Source: Escherichia coli (GTDB lineage Bacteria > Pseudomonadota > Gammaproteobacteria > Enterobacterales > Enterobacteriaceae). From it: a stretch of 20,473 bases of DNA. Below the pieces are notes generated by a model, which saw nothing but the letters and a program-made list of their open reading frames with translations, was not told where the DNA came from and did not search any database. The position numbers and the translations under genes are program-made. Shown one piece after another: positions 1-9,677 of the stretch (position 1 is its first letter; every line of letters begins with the position of its first letter). The stretch lies in the NCBI RefSeq assembly GCF_003334315.1, contig NZ_QOWR01000068.1; one strand, written 5' to 3'.

Positions 1-148
1 GGTTGAGAAGCGGTGTAAGTGAACTGCAGTTGCCATGTTTTACGGCAGTGAGAGCAGAGATAGCGCTGATGTCCGGCGGTGCTTTTGCCGTTACGCACCA
101 CCCCGTCAGTAGCTGAACAGGAGGGACAGCTGATAGAAACAGAAGCCA
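1..148 (-). CDS. insA: IS1 InsA, N-terminal part only (continues past window start)
   Basis: GTG start at 148-146 on the - strand; translation [49 protein letters not shown] matches InsA as I recall it. Confidence 0.85.
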
Positions 149-204
149 CTGGAGCACCTAAAAAACACCATCATACACTAAATCAGTAAGTTGGCAGCAT
201 CACC
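1..204 (-). mobile_element. IS1 left end (terminal inverted repeat plus start of insA), truncated by the window edge
   Basis: Reverse complement of 1-204 reads GGTGATGCTGCCAACTTACTGAT... which I recognise as the IS1 left terminus; the ~23-bp terminal inverted repeat is at 182-204 and the element continues beyond position 1. Confidence 0.9.
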
Positions 205-326
205 CGGGTTGTCAGTTCCGATTAGATAGAACCATGTCATCACGGTCAGAATTATGTTGATGGTGAGCGTCAACTTTGACAGGTATTTTGTTAAAAATGA
301 AGAATTCATTTCCTTTCTTGCTTTCC

Positions 327-1265
327 TTATTGGTTTTTCACGTCAAGATTAATTATTGTTGATGCATTTTTCGAAGGTGAGGGGAGACGAATGCCACTCA
401 ACCTGTTAATGATGGATTCGCAGAATACAATGTCATTATCTTTCTGACTTGCATCAAATGCAGATATGCCACCATAACCGTCTGCGAATATCCTGGCATG
501 ACACACCGCATCATTAGCACCATCGATTCCGGAAATGGCTTTTGATAATGCATCCGTAATTATTTTAGTGTCATGCACTAATTCCTTCTTGCTTCGTCCA
601 TCCTGAGTGGCGAATGAGTATTCTTTCTTTACAGTTTCATCACAATATAATGCTGCACTTTCAGGTGAGTACATTCTCAGTTCCAGCCAGCTTGAGCTTG
701 CACTCGAACCGGCGCTATTCACCCATGTCATTAACATGCTTTCTTTTTTGGCTACCCTGACGACGTACACATCCGTAGTATTCGGACCACCCGCTATGGT
801 TGAGCAGATTTTATGAAACTCAATGCCTCTCTTCGTGAGTGATGAGGCAGGATTGAATGTACAATTCTCATTCAGATAACCACCACATTTTGATGGTGCC
901 ATTGATATATATTCAGGGCCGAACTTGGCTGGCATTGACGTTCCAAGGGAAACCTCCCAGCCTAATTCTTTTTTCCTTTTCTCCAACACTGTTGATTTAA
1001 CGCCCATAACATTGATGCGAGCAAATCCAGTGCGGAGTGACATTCCGGAAGCTGTTTGCGTAACACCGTCAGCCCAAACAATATCTGAGTTTGACTGCCA
1101 GTCCCACGACAAGCCGTGACCAGCATCCGGCATTGCTGAATAAACAAAATCACCCAACTCAGAACTGGGCCTTCCCGAAAGAGATTCGGGGGAAATATCT
1201 TCAGCGGATATAGCGTAAGGCGGGAGCATCGCAACCATAACAGATAACAGTATTAATCCTTTCAT
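327..1265 (-). CDS. hypothetical secreted protein (312 aa), family unassigned
   Basis: 1008-nt open frame on the - strand (track ORF 327..1334). The likely start is the internal ATG at 1265-1263, preceded by AGGA about 10 nt upstream. N-terminus MKGLILLSVMVAMLPPYAISA-EDI is a classic Sec signal peptide with an AxA cleavage site. Stop TAA at 329-327. Several rare ATA Ile codons and roughly 44% GC by eye. Confidence 0.6.
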   Translation of the reverse strand: MKGLILLSVMVAMLPPYAISAEDISPESLSGRPSSELGDFVYSAMPDAGHGLSWDWQSNSDIVWADGVTQTASGMSLRTGFARINVMGVKSTVLEKRKKELGWEVSLGTSMPAKFGPEYISMAPSKCGGYLNENCTFNPASSLTKRGIEFHKICSTIAGGPNTTDVYVVRVAKKESMLMTWVNSAGSSASSSWLELRMYSPESAALYCDETVKKEYSFATQDGRSKKELVHDTKIITDALSKAISGIDGANDAVCHARIFADGYGGISAFDASQKDNDIVFCESIINRLSGIRLPSPSKNASTIINLDVKNQ

Positions 1266-1605
1266 TTGAATCAGTTCCTGAAGCGAACATTCAGAACATT
1301 CAACAAGCCCAGTGAAGGCCGCAAGACATTTCAACCGTTAGGCGAACCAACCAGACTCAGTACATCCATATTCTGCGAGAACAAGGATGCCCACAAATCA
1401 CTGGATTCTCCCTTGGTTTATGTTGGTGCGCATAATGTATATTATGTTAAATCATGTCTGAGTGATGCGAAGTGCTTTTCTGGTAGTCGTTATTCGTTCA
1501 GGGTTCAAGAACTTAAGCCTCTCCTCTTTCATAATTGGCCTGTGCATGGAGAAATAGCCTGGTTATTCCCTGCCCCATGCTAAGAGCGCAGTGTCTGTCG
1601 CATAG

Positions 1606-1860
1606 ACACTGCATACGAAAACACCAGAGGGTGCTGTTACTTATTTAAGGACGGATCAAGCGGGAATGAGTCCACTCCGGTATCAGAAATGGCTACGTCT
1701 CAATGAAGTCAGGCGACCGATGCTGAATGAACATTACGATGTCACCACAGCAGCCTATGCTGTCGGTTACGAAAGCTATCCCATTTCAGTCGGGAATATT
1801 CGCGGATGTTTGGAGAGTCACCCAAGAGAGATATTACCAGGTTAAGAAAGTCTGTCGGAC
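1606..1860 (+). pseudogene. AraC-family regulator C-terminal HTH remnant, frameshifted (possibly the K-12 yneL-type fragment)
   Basis: Frame 1 (open from 1606) reads ...GMSPLRYQKWLRLNEVRRPMLNEHYDVTTAAYAVGYESYP, which fits the AraC second-HTH pattern (G-x-SP..Y....RL...A...L......I..IA..VGY.S). The expected tail continues in another frame (FQSGIFADVWRVTQERYYQVKK, part of track ORF 1727..1948). No start codon or N-terminal domain. Confidence 0.45.
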
Positions 1861-2113
1861 AGCTTTAATAAACCCTGCACTTATCTGTTTAGAGCAATTC
1901 GGTGTTAGTTTCAGCAAGCAAACATTAACCATAGCTAATGATTTATAGCCATATTAACCATTGGTAGCTCTTGACCTTTCCTGACACTTCCCTTGTTCGC
2001 AATAATATTCTGTTTAGTCACGGTTTATAAATAACATGCATAATGAAATCGTCATGTTATTTAGCGACATAAAATGTTTTTGCAAATACTCTCTTCAACA
2101 AGTGCAGCAATAA

Positions 2114-3349
2114 ACTTGTTGTGGAACCAATATCCAGGTCGCAGGATATCGCTATTCTACGCAAGGTTTTTATAACTTATCCGACAGTGCATACAGTCGA
2201 ATGAGTGGTTACACCGTCAAGCCTCCTACCGGAGACAGCAATGAGCAGACACAATTTATTGATTATTTTAATCTGTTCTACAGTAAGCGTGGTCAGGAAC
2301 AAATAAGCATCTCTCAGCAGCTTGGAAATTACGGTACGACATTTTTCAGTGCCAGTCGCCAAAGTTACTGGAACACGTCACGCAGCGACCAGCAAATATC
2401 ATTTGGATTAAATGTGCCGTTTGGTGATATTACGACTTCGCTGAATTACAGCTATTCCAATAATATATGGCAAAACGATCGGGATCATTTACTCGCTTTT
2501 ACGCTTAATGTTCCCTTTAGTCATTGGATGCGTACAGACAGTCAGTCGGCATTTCGTAATTCAAATGCCAGTTACAGTATGTCAAACGATTTGAAAGGCG
2601 GCATGACCAATCTATCGGGGGTTTATGGCACTCTGCTGCCGGATAATAACCTGAATTATAGCGTTCAGGTCGGTAACACCCAAGGGGGTAATACATCGTC
2701 TGGCACCAGTGGTTACAGTTCTCTTAATTATCGTGGAGCTTACGGTAATACGAATGTCGGTTACAGTCGGAGTGGTGACAGCAGCCAGATTTATTACGGA
2801 ATGAGTGGTGGGGTTATTGCTCATGCTGATGGCATCACCTTTGGACAGCCGCTGGGCGACACAATGGTTCTGGTTAAGGCTCCTGGCGCTGATAATGTCA
2901 AAATAGAGAACCAGACCGGAATTCATACCGACTGGCGTGGCTATGCAATATTACCATTTGCGACAGAATATAGAGAAAATCGTGTCGCTCTTAACGCGAA
3001 TTCCCTTGCAGATAATGTTGAACTGGATGAAACCGTAGTCACTGTCATCCCAACTCACGGTGCTATTGCCAGAGCAACATTTAATGCACAAATCGGCGGG
3101 AAAGTATTAATGACGTTGAAGTACGGTAATAAAAGCGTTCCATTCGGTGCAATTGTCACACACGGAGAGAATAAAAATGGCAGCATTGTCGCGGAAAACG
3201 GTCAGGTTTATCTGACTGGACTTCCACAGTCAGGGAAATTACAGGTTTCATGGGGCAAAGATAAAAACTCAAACTGTATTGTCGAGTACAAGCTTCCTGA
3301 AGTTTCTCCTGGTACCTTACTGAACCAGCAGACAGCAATCTGTCGCTAA
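2114..3349 (+). pseudogene. ydeT: fimbrial usher (FimD-like), C-terminal ~410 codons only; 5-prime truncated
   Basis: Frame is open from the stop at 2111-2113 and FimD-like homology starts immediately (GYRYSTQGFYNLSDSAYSRMSGY... through ...LLNQQTAICR). No N-terminal plug or barrel start, no signal peptide. The track ORF begins at an internal ATG (2201). Confidence 0.85.
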
Positions 3350-3362
3350 GGAACAATAGATT

Positions 3363-3893
3363 ATGAAATACAATAACATTATTTTCCTCGGTTTATGTCT
3401 GGGGTTAACCACCTATTCTGCTTTATCCGCAGATAGCGTTATTAAAATTAGCGGGCGCGTCCTCGATTATGGCTGCACAGTCTCATCGGATTCGCTTAAT
3501 TTTACCGTAGATCTCCAAAAAAACAGTGCCAGACAATTTCCAACGACCGGTAGCACAAGTCCAGCCGTCCCTTTTCAGATTACGTTAAGTGAATGCAGCA
3601 AAGGGACAACGGGGGTTCGGGTTGCATTTAACGGTATTGAGGATGCAGAAAATAATACTTTGTTGAAACTGGATGAAGGAAGCAATACGGCCTCCGGTTT
3701 GGGTATAGAAATATTGGACGCAAATATGCGTCCGGTGAAACTGAATGATCTTCATGCCGGGATGCAGTGGATCCCACTGGTACCAGAACAGAACAATATT
3801 TTGCCTTACTCCGCTCGTCTGAAGTCAACTCAGAAGTCCGTCAATCCGGGACTGGTGAGGGCTTCGGCAACCTTTACCCTTGAATTTCAATAA
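3363..3893 (+). CDS. ydeS: fimbrial minor subunit (FimF-like), 176 aa
   Basis: Signal peptide MKYNNIIFLGLCLGLTTYSALSA, conserved Cys pair, pilin-like C-terminal strand; AAGGAA 7 nt upstream; 13-bp gap after the usher fragment. Confidence 0.85.
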   Translation: MKYNNIIFLGLCLGLTTYSALSADSVIKISGRVLDYGCTVSSDSLNFTVDLQKNSARQFPTTGSTSPAVPFQITLSECSKGTTGVRVAFNGIEDAENNTLLKLDEGSNTASGLGIEILDANMRPVKLNDLHAGMQWIPLVPEQNNILPYSARLKSTQKSVNPGLVRASATFTLEFQ

Positions 3894-3905
3894 TCAGAGT
3901 CAGAT

Positions 3906-4409
3906 ATGAAAAGACTTCACAAGAGGTTCCTGTTAGCTACGTTTTGCGCGTTATTCACAGCAACTCTCCAGGCCGCCGATGTCACTATCACTGTTAATGG
4001 TCGGGTAGTCGCTAAACCCTGCACTATTCAAACCAAAGAAGCTAACGTTAATCTCGGGGATCTTTATACGCGCAATCTGCAACAACCTGGTTCTGCATCT
4101 GGCTGGCACAATATTACTTTGTCATTAACCGATTGTCCGGTTGAAACAAGTGCAGTGACGGCAATCGTGACAGGTTCAACTGACAATACGGGTTATTACA
4201 AAAATGAAGGTACTGCCGAAAATATTCAGATAGAGCTGAGGGATGACCAGGATGCTGCGTTAAAAAATGGCGATAGCAAAACGGTTATTGTTGATGAGAT
4301 CACTCATAATGCACAGTTTCCACTTAAGGCAAGAGCTATCACGGTGAATGGAAACGCAAGCCAGGGAACGATCGAGGCGCTAATCAATGTGATCTACACC
4401 TGGCAATAA
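3906..4409 (+). CDS. ydeR: fimbrial minor subunit (FimG-like), 167 aa
   Basis: Signal peptide [23 protein letters not shown], pilin-like fold signature, tightly spaced after ydeS. Confidence 0.85.
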
Positions 4410-4467
4410 CGTCGATTCGATTTTCTTAGCCTTCTTTTTAAATCAATTTTTAACCTTAGGATATATC

Positions 4468-5382
4468 ATGGGTAAAACAATCAGTATAAAGGTCCTGTTC
4501 GGTATTTATCTTCTATTAATGGCAGGCAAAGTTTTTGCCTTCAGTTGTAATGTCGATGGCGGGTCAAGTATTGGAGCAGGTACAACCTCTGTTTATGTTA
4601 ATCTCGACCCTGTAATACAGCCGGGCCAGAATCTGGTTGTAGACTTGTCTCAGCATATAAGTTGCTGGAATGATTACGGCGGCTGGTACGACACTGATCA
4701 TATAAACCTGGTACAAGGCTCAGCTTTCGCAGGCTCCCTACAGTCATATAAAGGATCGCTGTACTGGAATAATGTGACCTACCCCTTCCCGTTGACGACA
4801 AATACCAACGTATTGGATATTGGTGATAAGACACCGATGCCATTACCGTTAAAACTCTATATTACCCCAGTTGGGGCGGCCGGTGGAGTTGTCATAAAAG
4901 CGGGGGAAGTCATTGCCCGTATTCATATGTATAAAATTGCAACATTAGGAAGCGGAAATCCGCGTAATTTTACGTGGAATATTATTTCAAATAACAATGT
5001 TGTTATGCCAACAGGCGGCTGCACCGTTGATAGTCGTAATGTCACCGTGGATCTCCCGGACTTTCCTGGAAGCGCAGAAATACCCCTTGGCGTATATTGC
5101 TCAAGCGAACAAAAGCTCTCATTTTATCTTTCGGGTGCCACCACTGACAGTAGCCGACAAGTGTTTGCTAACACAGCACCTGATGCAACAAAAGCATCGG
5201 GAGTGGGTGTCACTCTAATGCGTAATGGAAAAATACTGGCTACGGGAGAAAATGTCTCCCTGGGGACAGTAAATAAAAGCAAAGTACCTCTGGGTTTAAG
5301 CGCAACCTATGGACAAACAGGAAACAAGGTTTCAGCCGGAACCGTCCAGTCAGTCATTGGTGTCACTTTTATCTATGAATAA
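4468..5382 (+). CDS. ydeQ: FimH-like fimbrial tip adhesin, 304 aa
   Basis: Clear FimH-like similarity along the whole length (e.g. [46 protein letters not shown]); signal peptide; AGGA upstream. Confidence 0.88.
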
Positions 5383-5454
5383 TTGTGATTTTGACCTTAG
5401 TCTATGCGCTCCATTCACGAAAATTGCGCGGATAATTATTTTGTGAAGGCTATT

Positions 5455-5472
5455 AGCCTACACCTGTAAGAA
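5455..5472 (+). promoter_or_regulatory. EvgA-box-like dyad upstream of ydeP
   Basis: AGCCTACA-CC-TGTAAGAA against the 18-bp EvgA consensus TTCYTACA-N2-TGTARGAA as I recall it (right half perfect, left half 6/8). Confidence 0.6.
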
Positions 5473-5564
5473 AATCCGCGCACAATTGAAGCCAGAGTCT
5501 TATTTTTTATATTGAAAAATATGTTAATTTAAACACTATGAGAGATGATGCTTAACTTATCGTA

Positions 5565-5596
5565 TTTAATCTATTGTTTAACGATAATAGATTAAA
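5565..5596 (+). promoter_or_regulatory. perfect 11-bp inverted repeat with 10-bp spacer (candidate operator) upstream of ydeP
   Basis: TTTAATCTATT-gtttaacgat-AATAGATTAAA, about 120 bp upstream of the ydeP ATG. Confidence 0.35.
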
Positions 5597-5715
5597 AATA
5601 GAAAGAGAGTAGTCCCCTACTCTTATATATCCATGTTGGCGATAATCCCTTTGTATGTACTGTGCATCATCGCTATTACAAATCCTAATAATTCATTTCC
5701 ACACAGGATAAGTAG

Positions 5716-7995
5716 ATGAAGAAAAAAATTGAATCCTACCAGGGTGCTGCAGGTGGTTGGGGTGCTGTTAAATCCGTAGCGAATGCAGTACGTAAGCAGA
5801 TGGATATACGCCAGGATGTTATTGCCATGTTTGACATGAATAAGCCAGAGGGCTTTGACTGTCCGGGTTGTGCATGGCCAGATCCTAAGCACAGTGCGTC
5901 ATTCGACATTTGTGAAAACGGCGCAAAAGCAATCGCCTGGGAAGTCACGGATAAGCAGGTAAACGCCTCTTTCTTTGCTGAGAATACGGTTCAATCATTA
6001 CTTACCTGGGGAGACCACGAGCTTGAGGCTGCGGGGCGACTCACTCAGCCTTTGAAATATGATGCCGTCAGCGACTGTTACAAGCCATTAAGCTGGCAAC
6101 AAGCTTTCGACGAAATTGGCGCACGCCTTCAAAGCTATAGTGATCCCAATCAGGTTGAATTCTATACTTCGGGCCGCACTTCCAATGAAGCTGCCTTTCT
6201 TTATCAGCTTTTTGCCCGTGAATACGGGAGCAATAACTTTCCCGACTGCTCCAACATGTGCCATGAACCGACAAGCGTGGGTTTGGCAGCGAGTATCGGT
6301 GTAGGTAAAGGGACCGTGTTGCTGGAAGACTTTGAGAAGTGCGATTTAGTCATTTGCATTGGGCATAACCCTGGTACAAACCACCCTCGCATGCTGACTT
6401 CGTTGCGCGCTTTAGTGAAACGGGGAGCGAAAATGATCGCCATCAATCCTCTACAGGAACGTGGCCTGGAGCGATTTACCGCACCGCAAAACCCGTTTGA
6501 AATGCTGACGAACTCTGAGACTCAGTTGGCCAGTGCCTACTATAACGTGCGCATTGGTGGCGATATGGCGTTGCTCAAGGGGATGATGCGCCTGTTAATT
6601 GAGCGCGATGATGCTGCAAGCGCCGCAGGTCGGCCTTCATTGCTTGATGACGAGTTTATTCAAACGCATACCGTCGGCTTTGACGAGCTACGCCGTGACG
6701 TTCTCAATTCCGAGTGGAAAGATATCGAACGTATTTCTGGACTAAGTCAGACACAAATCGCCGAACTGGCTGACGCATATGCCGCTGCCGAACGCACCAT
6801 TATCTGTTACGGAATGGGGATCACTCAGCACGAACATGGTACCCAGAACGTACAGCAACTGGTCAATCTGCTGTTGATGAAAGGTAACATTGGCAAGCCT
6901 GGTGCGGGTATCTGCCCACTACGTGGACACTCTAATGTACAGGGCGACCGAACCGTCGGTATCACCGAGAAACCGTCTGCAGAGTTTCTGGCTCGTCTGG
7001 GTGAGCGCTATGGCTTCACCCCACCTCATGCACCTGGACATGCTGCAATTGCCAGCATGCAAGCAATATGTACGGGGCAGGCTCGAGCATTGATCTGCAT
7101 GGGGGGCAATTTTGCGCTGGCAATGCCAGATCGGGAAGCGAGCGCTGTACCGTTAACGCAATTAGATTTGGCGGTACACGTAGCCACTAAGCTTAACCGC
7201 TCTCATCTGTTGACCGCACGGCATAGCTATATTCTGCCGGTCCTGGGACGTAGCGAGATTGACATGCAAAAAAACGGTGCGCAGGCGGTAACCGTTGAGG
7301 ATTCAATGTCGATGATTCATGCCTCGCGTGGCGTGTTAAAACCCGCCGGTGTAATGCTGAAATCAGAGTGTGCAGTGGTCGCGGGAATCGCGCAGGCAGC
7401 ACTACCCCAGAGCGTGGTAGCCTGGGAGTATCTGGTGGAAGATTATGATCGCATTCGCAATGACATTGAAGCTGTGCTGCCAGAGTTCGCCGACTATAAC
7501 CAGCGCATCCGTCATCCCGGTGGTTTTCACCTGATAAATGCAGCTGCTGAAAGGCGCTGGATGACGCCGTCAGGTAAGGCTAATTTCATTACCAGCAAAG
7601 GGCTGTTAGAAGATCCCTCTTCAGCGTTTAACAGTAAGCTGGTCATGGCGACAGTACGCAGCCACGATCAGTACAACACGACGATTTATGGTATGGATGA
7701 TCGCTATCGAGGGGTATTCGGTCAACGAGATGTGGTCTTTATGAGTGCTAAACAAGCTAAAATTTGCCGTGTAAAAAACGGCGAAAGAGTTAATCTTATT
7801 GCGCTTACGCCAGACGGTAAGCGCAGCTCACGCCGCATGGATAGATTAAAAGTGGTCATTTACCCTATGGCTGACCGCTCACTGGTGACCTATTTTCCAG
7901 AATCGAATCACATGCTAACACTTGATAACCACGATCCATTAAGTGGCATTCCTGGCTATAAAAGTATTCCGGTTGAATTAGAACCATCAAATTAA
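5716..7995 (+). CDS. ydeP: molybdopterin oxidoreductase, formate-dehydrogenase-like; acid-resistance protein, 759 aa
   Basis: Recognised sequence ([25 protein letters not shown]...); N-terminal Cys cluster CPGCAWPD; AGGA upstream. Confidence 0.9.
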
Positions 7996-8010
7996 TGCCT
8001 CTTCTCATTT

Positions 8011-8037
8011 CTTCTGCTGTCATCCGCACAGCAGAAG
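8011..8037 (+). terminator. stem-loop after ydeP (10-bp perfect stem, no U-tract)
   Basis: CTTCTGCTGT-catccgc-ACAGCAGAAG, 16 bp after the ydeP stop. Confidence 0.4.
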
Positions 8038-8113
8038 AATTCCTCATTGACTATTATTTCGCAATTTGCTCACATGGATTAAATTAAACTACATACTATA
8101 AGATATAAACTTC

Positions 8114-8131
8114 TGCCTACAGCTGTAAGAA
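8114..8131 (+). promoter_or_regulatory. EvgA-box-like dyad upstream of safA-ydeO
   Basis: TGCCTACA-GC-TGTAAGAA; same architecture as the ydeP site. Confidence 0.6.
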
Positions 8132-8242
8132 ACTCCGCTCAGTACTGAAGCACCAGTCCTATTTCCTCTTTTCTCCAGCCTGTTATATTAAGCATACTGA
8201 TTAACGATTTTTAACGTTATCCGCTAAATAAACATATTTGAA

Positions 8243-8440
8243 ATGCATGCGACCACAGTGAAAAACAAAATCACGCAAAGAGACAACTATAAAGAAATCA
8301 TGTCTGCAATTGTGGTTGTCTTATTACTGACACTTACGTTGATAGCCATTTTTTCGGCAATTGATCAGCTGAGTATTTCAGAAATGGGTCGCATTGCAAG
8401 AGATCTTACACATTTCATTATCAATAGTTTGCAAGGCTGA
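8243..8440 (+). CDS. safA: small membrane protein SafA (connector between EvgS/EvgA and PhoQ/PhoP), 65 aa
   Basis: Recognised sequence MHATTVKNKITQRDNYKEIMSAIVVVLLLTLTLIAIF... with a single transmembrane helix. Confidence 0.85.
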   Translation: MHATTVKNKITQRDNYKEIMSAIVVVLLLTLTLIAIFSAIDQLSISEMGRIARDLTHFIINSLQG

Positions 8441-8514
8441 AAACAAACAGCAAATTATAAATATGAAATGTTAAAAAAGTATCGATAAAAACTTTATTGT
8501 TTTAAGGAGATAAA

Positions 8515-9276
8515 ATGTCGCTCGTTTGTTCTGTTATATTTATTCATCATGCCTTCAACGCTAACATTTTAGATAAAGATTACGCCTTCTCTGACGGCGA
8601 GATCCTGATGGTAGATAACGCTGTTCGTACGCATTTTGAACCTTATGAGCGGCATTTTAAAGAGATCGGATTTACTGAAAATACCATTAAAAAATATCTA
8701 CAATGCACTAACATCCAGACAGTGACGGTGCCTGTTCCTGCGAAGTTTTTACGTGCTTCAAATGTACCGACTGGATTGCTTAATGAAATGATTGCTTATC
8801 TCAACTCGGAAGAACGCAATCATCATAATTTTTCAGAACTTTTGCTTTTTTCTTGCCTGTCTATTTTTGCCGCATGCAAAGGTTTCATTACACTATTAAC
8901 TAACGGTGTGCTATCCGTTTCCGGAAAAGTGAGAAATATTGTCAACATGAAGCTGGCGCACCCATGGAAGCTGAAAGATATTTGTGACTGCCTGTACATC
9001 AGTGAAAGCCTGTTGAAGAAAAAACTAAAGCAAGAGCAAACGACATTCTCACAGATTCTATTAGATGCCAGAATGCAGCACGCAAAAAATTTGATACGCG
9101 TAGAAGGTTCAGTCAATAAAATTGCCGAACAATGTGGTTATGCCAGTACATCTTATTTTATTTATGCGTTCCGCAAACATTTCGGCAACAGTCCGAAGAG
9201 AGTTTCTAAGGAGTACCGTTGTCAAAGTCACACGGGTATGAATACGGGCAACACGATGAGTGCTTTAGCTATTTGA
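8515..9276 (+). CDS. ydeO: AraC-family acid-resistance transcriptional regulator, 253 aa
   Basis: Recognised sequence; C-terminal AraC HTH (AEQCGYASTSYFIYAFRKHFGNSPKRV); AAGGAG 7 nt upstream; 74-bp gap after safA suggests an operon. Confidence 0.9.
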   Translation: MSLVCSVIFIHHAFNANILDKDYAFSDGEILMVDNAVRTHFEPYERHFKEIGFTENTIKKYLQCTNIQTVTVPVPAKFLRASNVPTGLLNEMIAYLNSEERNHHNFSELLLFSCLSIFAACKGFITLLTNGVLSVSGKVRNIVNMKLAHPWKLKDICDCLYISESLLKKKLKQEQTTFSQILLDARMQHAKNLIRVEGSVNKIAEQCGYASTSYFIYAFRKHFGNSPKRVSKEYRCQSHTGMNTGNTMSALAI

Positions 9277-9324
9277 TTATTTGCTAACGAGTAGTCAACC
9301 ACGCACGCTACGTAAGAATTATAT

Positions 9325-9357
9325 GGGGCAGCCATTCCCTGCCCCGCGTTGTTTTTA
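9325..9357 (+). terminator. intrinsic terminator after ydeO
   Basis: GGGGCAG-ccattcc-CTGCCCC followed by a T-rich run (gcgttgttttt). Confidence 0.6.
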
Positions 9358-9677
9358 GGCGATATATTTATTGAAATAAATAAGTGACATCCATCACATA
9401 TTTATGCACTTGCATAACCTGTTGCATGATTATTTATGATCTCAATTCGGCATTTTGTCAGTAAAATGCAATAATTTATTAAATATCAATAAATTAGTTG
9501 TTTATCGGCGAGAAATTACTTAATAGAACAGAAAGTAATGTCAACGCTTTATGGACTGTTATTTCCCTTTTTTTAGCTAAATCTGCTATCTCTTTATGTG
9601 ACTAACTTCACTTACATCCACTTATTTCTCTTCGTAAAATTACTTCGGAATTAAGTACAATAAGAAGAGGAACATTT

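Follow-up and report, generated by a model that had tools for sequence, protein, structure and literature searches.

The contig and its two ends

The stretch of DNA that we analyzed (hereafter the window) is the entire contig QOWR01000068.1 of the draft Escherichia coli assembly GCA_003334315.1, 20,473 bp long, as established by an exact-protein look-up. Reading from the left, it carries one end of an IS1 copy, the first codons of an interrupted gene for a 119-aa protein, an intact gene for a 312-aa protein, a dif site, and the yneL and ydeT remnants (Table 1). The right end of the contig (window 20156-20473) lies inside the 5' part of gadB, a gene with a near-identical paralogue, gadA. Because both contig ends fall in repeats (IS1 and gadB), both look like assembly breaks, and the truncation of IS1 at position 1 would be a product of assembly and not of biology. 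A short-read assembler would be unable to pass a multicopy IS1, so that the contig would start there. Its first base lies 77 nt beyond the copy-specific base at position 78, a distance that would fit a de Bruijn assembler run with k=77. The reading of this DNA made beforehand from its letters (the sequence-only reading) had placed the partner end of IS1 and any target-site duplication outside the window; this is correct, since the window is the whole draft contig.

Table 1. Features of the window, and the plasmid copies of the module used for comparison. Sequences retrieved for comparison are designated by L numbers
Feature	Position	Strand	Basis or remark
IS1 left end	1..204	-	Identity to annotated IS1A/IS1B copies; cut by the contig end, not biologically
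insA 5' part, ~49 codons, zinc-ribbon region, GTG start 149-147	1..149	-	Translation and Pfam PF03811
IS1 IRL, 23-bp terminal inverted repeat, GGTGATGCTGCCAACTTACTGAT	182..204	-	No other match in the window; chance expectation 0
IS1/target junction	204..205		Every non-IS1 flank match starts exactly at 205
119-aa membrane-protein gene (putative), first 35 codons	205..309	-	Cut off by IS1
Predicted 9-bp target-site duplication, CGGGTTGTC	205..213	+	Expected from the 9-bp duplication of IS1; this 9-mer has a single occurrence in the window
Intact 312-aa cargo gene (the "strain-specific gene")	327..1265	-	Beta-rich N-domain and TolA-C-terminal-like domain
Element arm beside the XerC half-site; putative leader and promoter region of the cargo gene	1266..1424		Alignment A2, BLAST
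dif site, GGTGCGCATAA-TGTATA-TTATGTTAAAT; attR of the integrated element	1425..1452	+	Exact match, 0 by chance
yneL (AraC-family) pseudogene remnant	1660..1868	+	Common to K-12 and IS1-free strains
ydeT, truncated usher, C-terminal part; ORF 2201-3349 = 382 aa	2123..3349	+	Common to K-12
Plasmid module, C. freundii plasmid	L027 4001-7189		
Plasmid module, E. kobei pEk72-1	L028 4001-7254		

Identity of the IS1 end

Window 1-204 corresponds to nt 1-204 of IS1, its left end, in reverse orientation; the contig thus shows 204 nt of an element whose full form has about 768 bp and an insA-insB' programmed frameshift. A full-length match to this segment, with 99.5-100% identity, was present in 4,961 of the 5,426 complete E. 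coli genomes, in which IS1 is multicopy (median of 10 copies per genome), and the features matched carry the annotation "IS1-like element IS1A/IS1B family transposase". Among the records listed, only three matched at 100%, all of them from strain F11 (plasmid or unplaced).

The 23-bp imperfect terminal inverted repeat sits at the very end of the element. GGTGATGCTGCCAACTTACTGAT is the reverse complement of 182-204, and the window holds no second IS1-type terminal repeat. When aligned with a complete 768-bp IS1 of strain CFSAN051542 (L002), whose opposite end (IRR) reads GGTAATGACTCCAACTTATTGAT, the outer end of this IRL falls exactly on the end of that element. Over the 204 bases, the window differs from the CFSAN051542 copy at two positions, 78 and 160. 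The insA start lies about 56 nt inside the IRL and the gene reads inwards; the minus strand from 149 to 3 translates to the InsA N-terminus, ending in ...TYTASQ, and the partial gene call matches PF03811 (Zn_ribbon_InsA).

Window 1-204 is thus a genuine IS1 copy, seen at its insA-proximal (IRL) end. In repeat length and in the distance and orientation of the insA zinc-ribbon ORF it agrees with the IS1A and IS1B isoforms of E. coli; apart from two single-base differences from the IS1B reference copy, there is nothing distinctive about it. The sequence-only reading, which had the window begin inside IS1 with the terminal repeat ending at 204 and insA transcribed leftwards, was right on these points: the alignment check that it proposed covered 204 of 204 bases without failure, and the direction of insA follows from both the translation and the partial gene.

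The interrupted gene and the junction

As all flank matches other than those to IS1 begin at 205, the boundary of IS1 lies at 204/205. On the minus strand, window 309 to 205 translates to MNSSFLTKYLSKLTLTINIILTVMTWFYLIGTDNP, which is identical to residues 1-35 of WP_063078926.1, a protein of strains ET220 and 210221272. The intact 119-aa gene is annotated in the ET220 locus (L001) and in L007. Its product, judged from the sequence, would be a membrane protein with two hydrophobic helices. In the window, the residual ORF (178-309) has 43 codons, 35 of them native and eight encoded by IS1. The IS1 copy is oriented in the same transcriptional direction as the genes of the element described below, and the 312-aa gene upstream of the insertion is intact.

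ET220 is the closest complete genome, with 99.9% identity over window 205-10200. Its uninterrupted site (L001, 8000/8001) reads ...GAATACCATAT/CGGGTTGTCAG... In the comparison with empty sites suggested by the sequence-only reading, the uninterrupted site of the relatives ET220 and 210221272 was found inside the annotated 119-aa gene. The insertion is not the ancestral one that the same reading had set against its own proposal, as a query spanning the junction matched none of the 5,426 complete genomes at a coverage of at least 80%. The same junction was found in two Logan contigs (L004 and L005), independent of the window and 100% identical to it from position 178; they come from SRR1122540 (a contig found in 4 samples) and SRR3824135, and they stop 27 nt inside IS1. 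The exact allele of the 312-aa protein occurred on five contigs only, and the three shown (L003-L005, from independent assemblies) all end in IS1. Given the absence of the junction from complete genomes and the IS1 ends of all three contigs shown among the five with this allele, the IS1 insertion is recent and clone-specific.

A different truncation of the 119-aa gene was seen in L016, a 2.8-kb draft contig (GCA_050027275.1), which has a 44-aa C-terminal remnant of the gene at 2015-2149. This remnant lies nearer to the 311-aa gene than an intact copy would permit, which suggests an internal deletion unrelated to IS1.

An accessory element at dif

The sequence GGTGCGCATAATGTATATTATGTTAAAT, the E. 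coli dif site, is present without mismatch at 1425-1452, and the same sequence lies between hipA and yneL in K-12. An element of ~3.3 kb is integrated at this site, and window 205-1424 forms its right arm. Boundary alignment (A1) shows K-12 as the empty site, in the order hipA flank, dif, yneL flank. In the carriers, the hipA side has the order hipA flank, (G/A)GTGCGCATAA-TGTGTTGA-ACATGTTAAAT, element, and the distal side has the order element, perfect dif, yneL flank. The 30-bp hybrid Xer site beside hipA was present in all 14 element-bearing loci examined; the window, cut by IS1 and the contig end, stops short of that boundary. A canonical or one-mismatch dif was found distally in 12 of the 14 loci within the stretch fetched, the exceptions being L008 and L021, where a filamentous prophage comes next and no distal dif falls within that stretch. 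In ET220 the element is present twice in tandem, with the 30-mer, the predicted attP, between the two copies; the predicted circular junction of the element is GGTGCGCATAATGTGTTGAACATGTTAAAT.

The prophages of L008 (1-6400) and L021 (1-7600) adjoin the element at the same dif locus and encode Zot, Rep_trans or Phage_CRI, a coat protein, and a secretin. This stacking of prophages resembles the TLC-CTX arrays of V. cholerae.

The intact element, of ~3.3 kb, contains three minus-strand genes, in the order 312-aa, 119-aa, an 813-nt gap, and 315-aa. The 315-aa protein has no Pfam family and gave strong matches to PHROG "HNH endonuclease" profiles (phrog_2081, 9.5e-35). Searches of the three proteins against Pfam, NCBIfam, and PHROGs revealed no integrase or recombinase; PADLOC, NCBIfam, and Pfam returned nothing for them, and the matches obtained were to PHROGs only. 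No Rfam family was found in the window or in the intact element. The phage collection gave no DNA match to the element, and nothing assigns it to a known phage genome.

About 50 of the 5,426 complete genomes hold at least 80% of the element. The remaining matches that were sampled are confined to the final ~53 bases of the query (dif and the adjoining arm), as in K-12. Insertion sequences have also entered the element elsewhere. In CFSAN051542 an independent IS1 lies within the 312-aa gene (L002, 8683-9450), flanked by a clean 9-bp duplication, CTGTTGATT. L023-L025 have an IS3-family element between the 311-aa and 119-aa genes (about 7554-8767). Independent hits of this kind in other strains give the element the look of an IS sink whose insertions are tolerated.

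Next to the XerC half-site, ~190 nt and the first signal-peptide codons of the cargo gene are kept in both chromosomal and plasmid copies, despite their differing cargo. This conserved arm could be a shared promoter and leader, or a cer-like accessory sequence. The leader (1266-1424) showed no significant RNA structure (z = -1.1), and inspection by eye of the arm next to the Xer site revealed no ArgR box. The cumulative GC skew over window 1-8000, a short and noisy stretch, has its minimum at ~2000-2400, close to dif, and this position is compatible with the replication terminus.

The 312-aa cargo protein

Two domains make up the 312-aa protein: at the N-terminus a novel, beta-rich one (residues ~20-205), and after it one that resembles the C-terminal domain of TolA (~226-312). 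It has a hydrophobic, signal-peptide-like N-terminus, judged by eye, and is predicted to be secreted. Its family comprises 272 representatives that share the N-terminal domain of ~180 residues. The protein belongs to no Pfam family and did not reach the threshold of PF06519; a match to PF06519 was obtained for one of 80 relatives at E<=0.001. The fold, taken together with a weak profile-to-PDB match, would support calling the C-terminal domain "TolA-III-like", and only that. The phage collection gave no tblastn match, and the BFVD fold search returned nothing meaningful for the protein.

The C-terminal domain of TolA (TolA-III) is the co-receptor for g3p of filamentous phages and for colicins. 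The 312-aa protein differs from TolA in that it has a signal peptide, lacks TolA domains I and II, and carries the unrelated N-terminal domain. Two further relationships were rejected on comparison: the 312-aa and 315-aa proteins are not paralogues, and the 312-aa protein is not similar in sequence to the TolA-C cargo of plasmids.

The module on plasmids

The module was also found on plasmids of Citrobacter, Klebsiella, and Enterobacter. There it lies between two Xer-type sites, one of 30 bp, which has the unusual 8-nt spacer again, and one of 28 bp, which is dif/cer-like. The copies on large Citrobacter and Klebsiella plasmids are ~71% identical, and that on E. kobei pEk72-1 is 96% identical over the 62% of the query that is covered. 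In pEk72-1, an annotated protein with a TolA C-terminal domain replaces the 119-aa and 312-aa cargo, with 97% conservation of the HNH-like gene.

The yneL and ydeT remnants

In K-12, both the element and IS1 are missing from this place, and the sequence is collinear with the window from the dif region to position 10202, with 99.5% DNA identity. The same AraC-family remnant is annotated there as yneL, and in ET220 yneL is a frameshifted, partial HTH gene (L001, 9456-9664, equal to the window coordinate + 7796). The YdeT proteins of the window and K-12 are identical at 378 of 382 residues. Both pseudogenes are likewise carried by ET220 and 210221272, which lack IS1 here.

A full-length usher of 883 aa, with its chaperone, is encoded in L020 and L023, and homology with the window starts at 2123. 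No IS is present at this breakpoint. In these two loci, ~820 nt separate dif from sequence homologous to window 1443-1628 (86.5% identity), and window 1629-2122, the region of the yneL remnant, has no counterpart. From this lack of a counterpart, the state of yneL and ydeT is due to replacement or deletion without IS at the edges. Judging from these comparisons, the flank to the right of dif is itself polymorphic. The presence of the remnants in K-12 and in IS1-free strains, and the absence of an IS from the breakpoint, indicate that their decay is older than the IS1 insertion and independent of it.

A probable late insertion of IS1 into the element

We consider it very probable that IS1 is a late insertion in a dif-integrated, IMEX-like element, and that neither the occurrence of the strain-specific gene nor the state of yneL and ydeT has any connection with it. 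The accessory element would have been integrated first, between hipA and the chromosomal dif, by Xer-type recombination. Later, in a single lineage, IS1 would have transposed into the putative membrane-protein gene of the element, truncating it after codon 35 and sparing the cargo gene upstream. The segment is bounded by dif and the hybrid Xer site, and the corresponding site in K-12 is empty; its presence or absence thus follows Xer-type integration and not IS1.

The sequence-only reading had given IS1 a larger part. In its account, IS1 generated the local variability, bringing in or uncovering the strain-specific gene and degrading the AraC and usher genes, and the physical proximity of IS1 is the only observation that favors it. 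Against it, the same gene and remnants occur without IS1 in ET220, 210221272, and other strains, the segment ends at an exact dif and is bounded by Xer sites instead of IS ends, and the remnants exist in K-12, where the junction of hipA with dif is clean and bears no IS1 scar. IS1 consequently explains neither the gene nor the remnants, and we regard this account as highly improbable. The junction itself could in principle be an assembly chimera with no real insertion behind it, since misjoins are possible at a contig end that lies in a repeat. The identical junction was, however, assembled independently in SRR1122540 and SRR3824135, and at the break the IS1 terminal repeat is complete to its final base, which leaves this a negligible chance.

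A rival of more weight, and what is left of the rearrangement proposed by the sequence-only reading, is a loss of DNA on the left after the insertion. We favor a simple IS1 insertion with a 9-bp duplication (CGGGTTGTC) as the likely event. It would join the IRR of IS1 as ...GAATACCATATCGGGTTGTC/GGTAATGAC, and the 9-bp direct repeat would show as the IRR joined to ...ATACCATATCGGGTTGTC. A survey of the LTEE recorded five IS1 events, each of them a simple insertion with a duplication; duplications were missing only from events with deletions (PMC11708052). The other IS1 in the element, that of CFSAN051542, is a simple insertion as well. Adjacent deletions and IS-IS recombination are both known effects of IS elements, and neither leaves target duplications (PMC11708052); an adjacent deletion or IS1-IS1 recombination after the insertion might have eliminated the rest of the element or moved it elsewhere, possibly together with hipBA. 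The element has been hit repeatedly by IS elsewhere (IS1 and IS3 in CFSAN051542, IS3 in L023-L025), and the left flank was not recovered: exact-protein look-ups with three alleles of the 315-aa protein, two neighbours specific to ET220, and the 44-aa product expected from the truncated 119-aa gene returned no other contig of GCA_003334315.1 or SRR1122540. The contig L016, which matched the 44-aa query, was rejected as the left side, its truncation being unrelated. Yet a missing left contig is expected in any case, because such look-ups require exact protein sequences, and no positive evidence speaks for a deletion or a recombination, either of which we find rather doubtful.

In itself the IS1 end is of little consequence. 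IS1 is the commonest insertion sequence of E. coli, and this is a routine insertion, specific to one lineage, into dispensable DNA, encountered at a contig break. The variable segment between hipA and yneL should be read as an integration hotspot at the dif site and not as a product of IS-driven decay, and yneL and ydeT are old, shared pseudogenes.

A broader interpretation is offered tentatively, as a possibility that we would not call likely. The segment may belong to a so far undescribed family: small modules of Enterobacteriaceae that are bounded by Xer sites and move between plasmid Xer sites and chromosomal dif. Their exchangeable cargo might be a secreted mimic of TolA domain III that works in the periplasm as a decoy for filamentous phages, for which TolA-III is a co-receptor and which compete for the same dif site, or for TolA-dependent colicins; IS1 would here have knocked out the membrane-protein partner. 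The decoy function is speculative. If true, it would amount to a simple device against inoviruses or colicins. With its TolA-like cargo and its presence on chromosomes as well as plasmids, the small Xer-bounded module may merit a study of its own.

Comparison with known Xer-integrated elements

The element appears to have been integrated by Xer-type site-specific recombination in the manner of an IMEX, with XerCD as the recombinase suggested by the architecture of the sites. It has one boundary at the chromosomal dif, relatives such as K-12 have an empty site with a single dif, and no integrase is encoded by the three proteins of intact copies. The same architecture has been described for IMEX elements, CUS-1, and YpfPhi at the dif sites of E. 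coli and Yersinia (PMC5357621; PMC4266046). Like an IMEX, the element lies at an exact dif; one of its ends restores an intact dif, and in relatives an imperfect hybrid site marks the opposite end and the joint of tandem copies. It has no detected recombinase, and dif-integrating elements, including filamentous prophages, are stacked at its site. It differs in its size of ~3.3 kb, in having three genes with none for replication or morphogenesis, and in its attP-like site, which has an 8-nt spacer (TGTGTTGA) and a XerD arm (ACATGTTAAAT) with two changes. In the accessible portions of the full-text literature searched, no description of the element was found.

The pdif/dif modules of Acinetobacter offer a second comparison. 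They too are small gene modules bounded by XerC/D sites that occur on different replicons with exchangeable cargo. In an abstract from 2026, dif modules are described as unique to Acinetobacter (PMC13141974). The element analyzed here differs from them in its Enterobacteriaceae host, in its chromosomal copies, which sit at the true dif, and in its two bounding sites, which are both in direct orientation.
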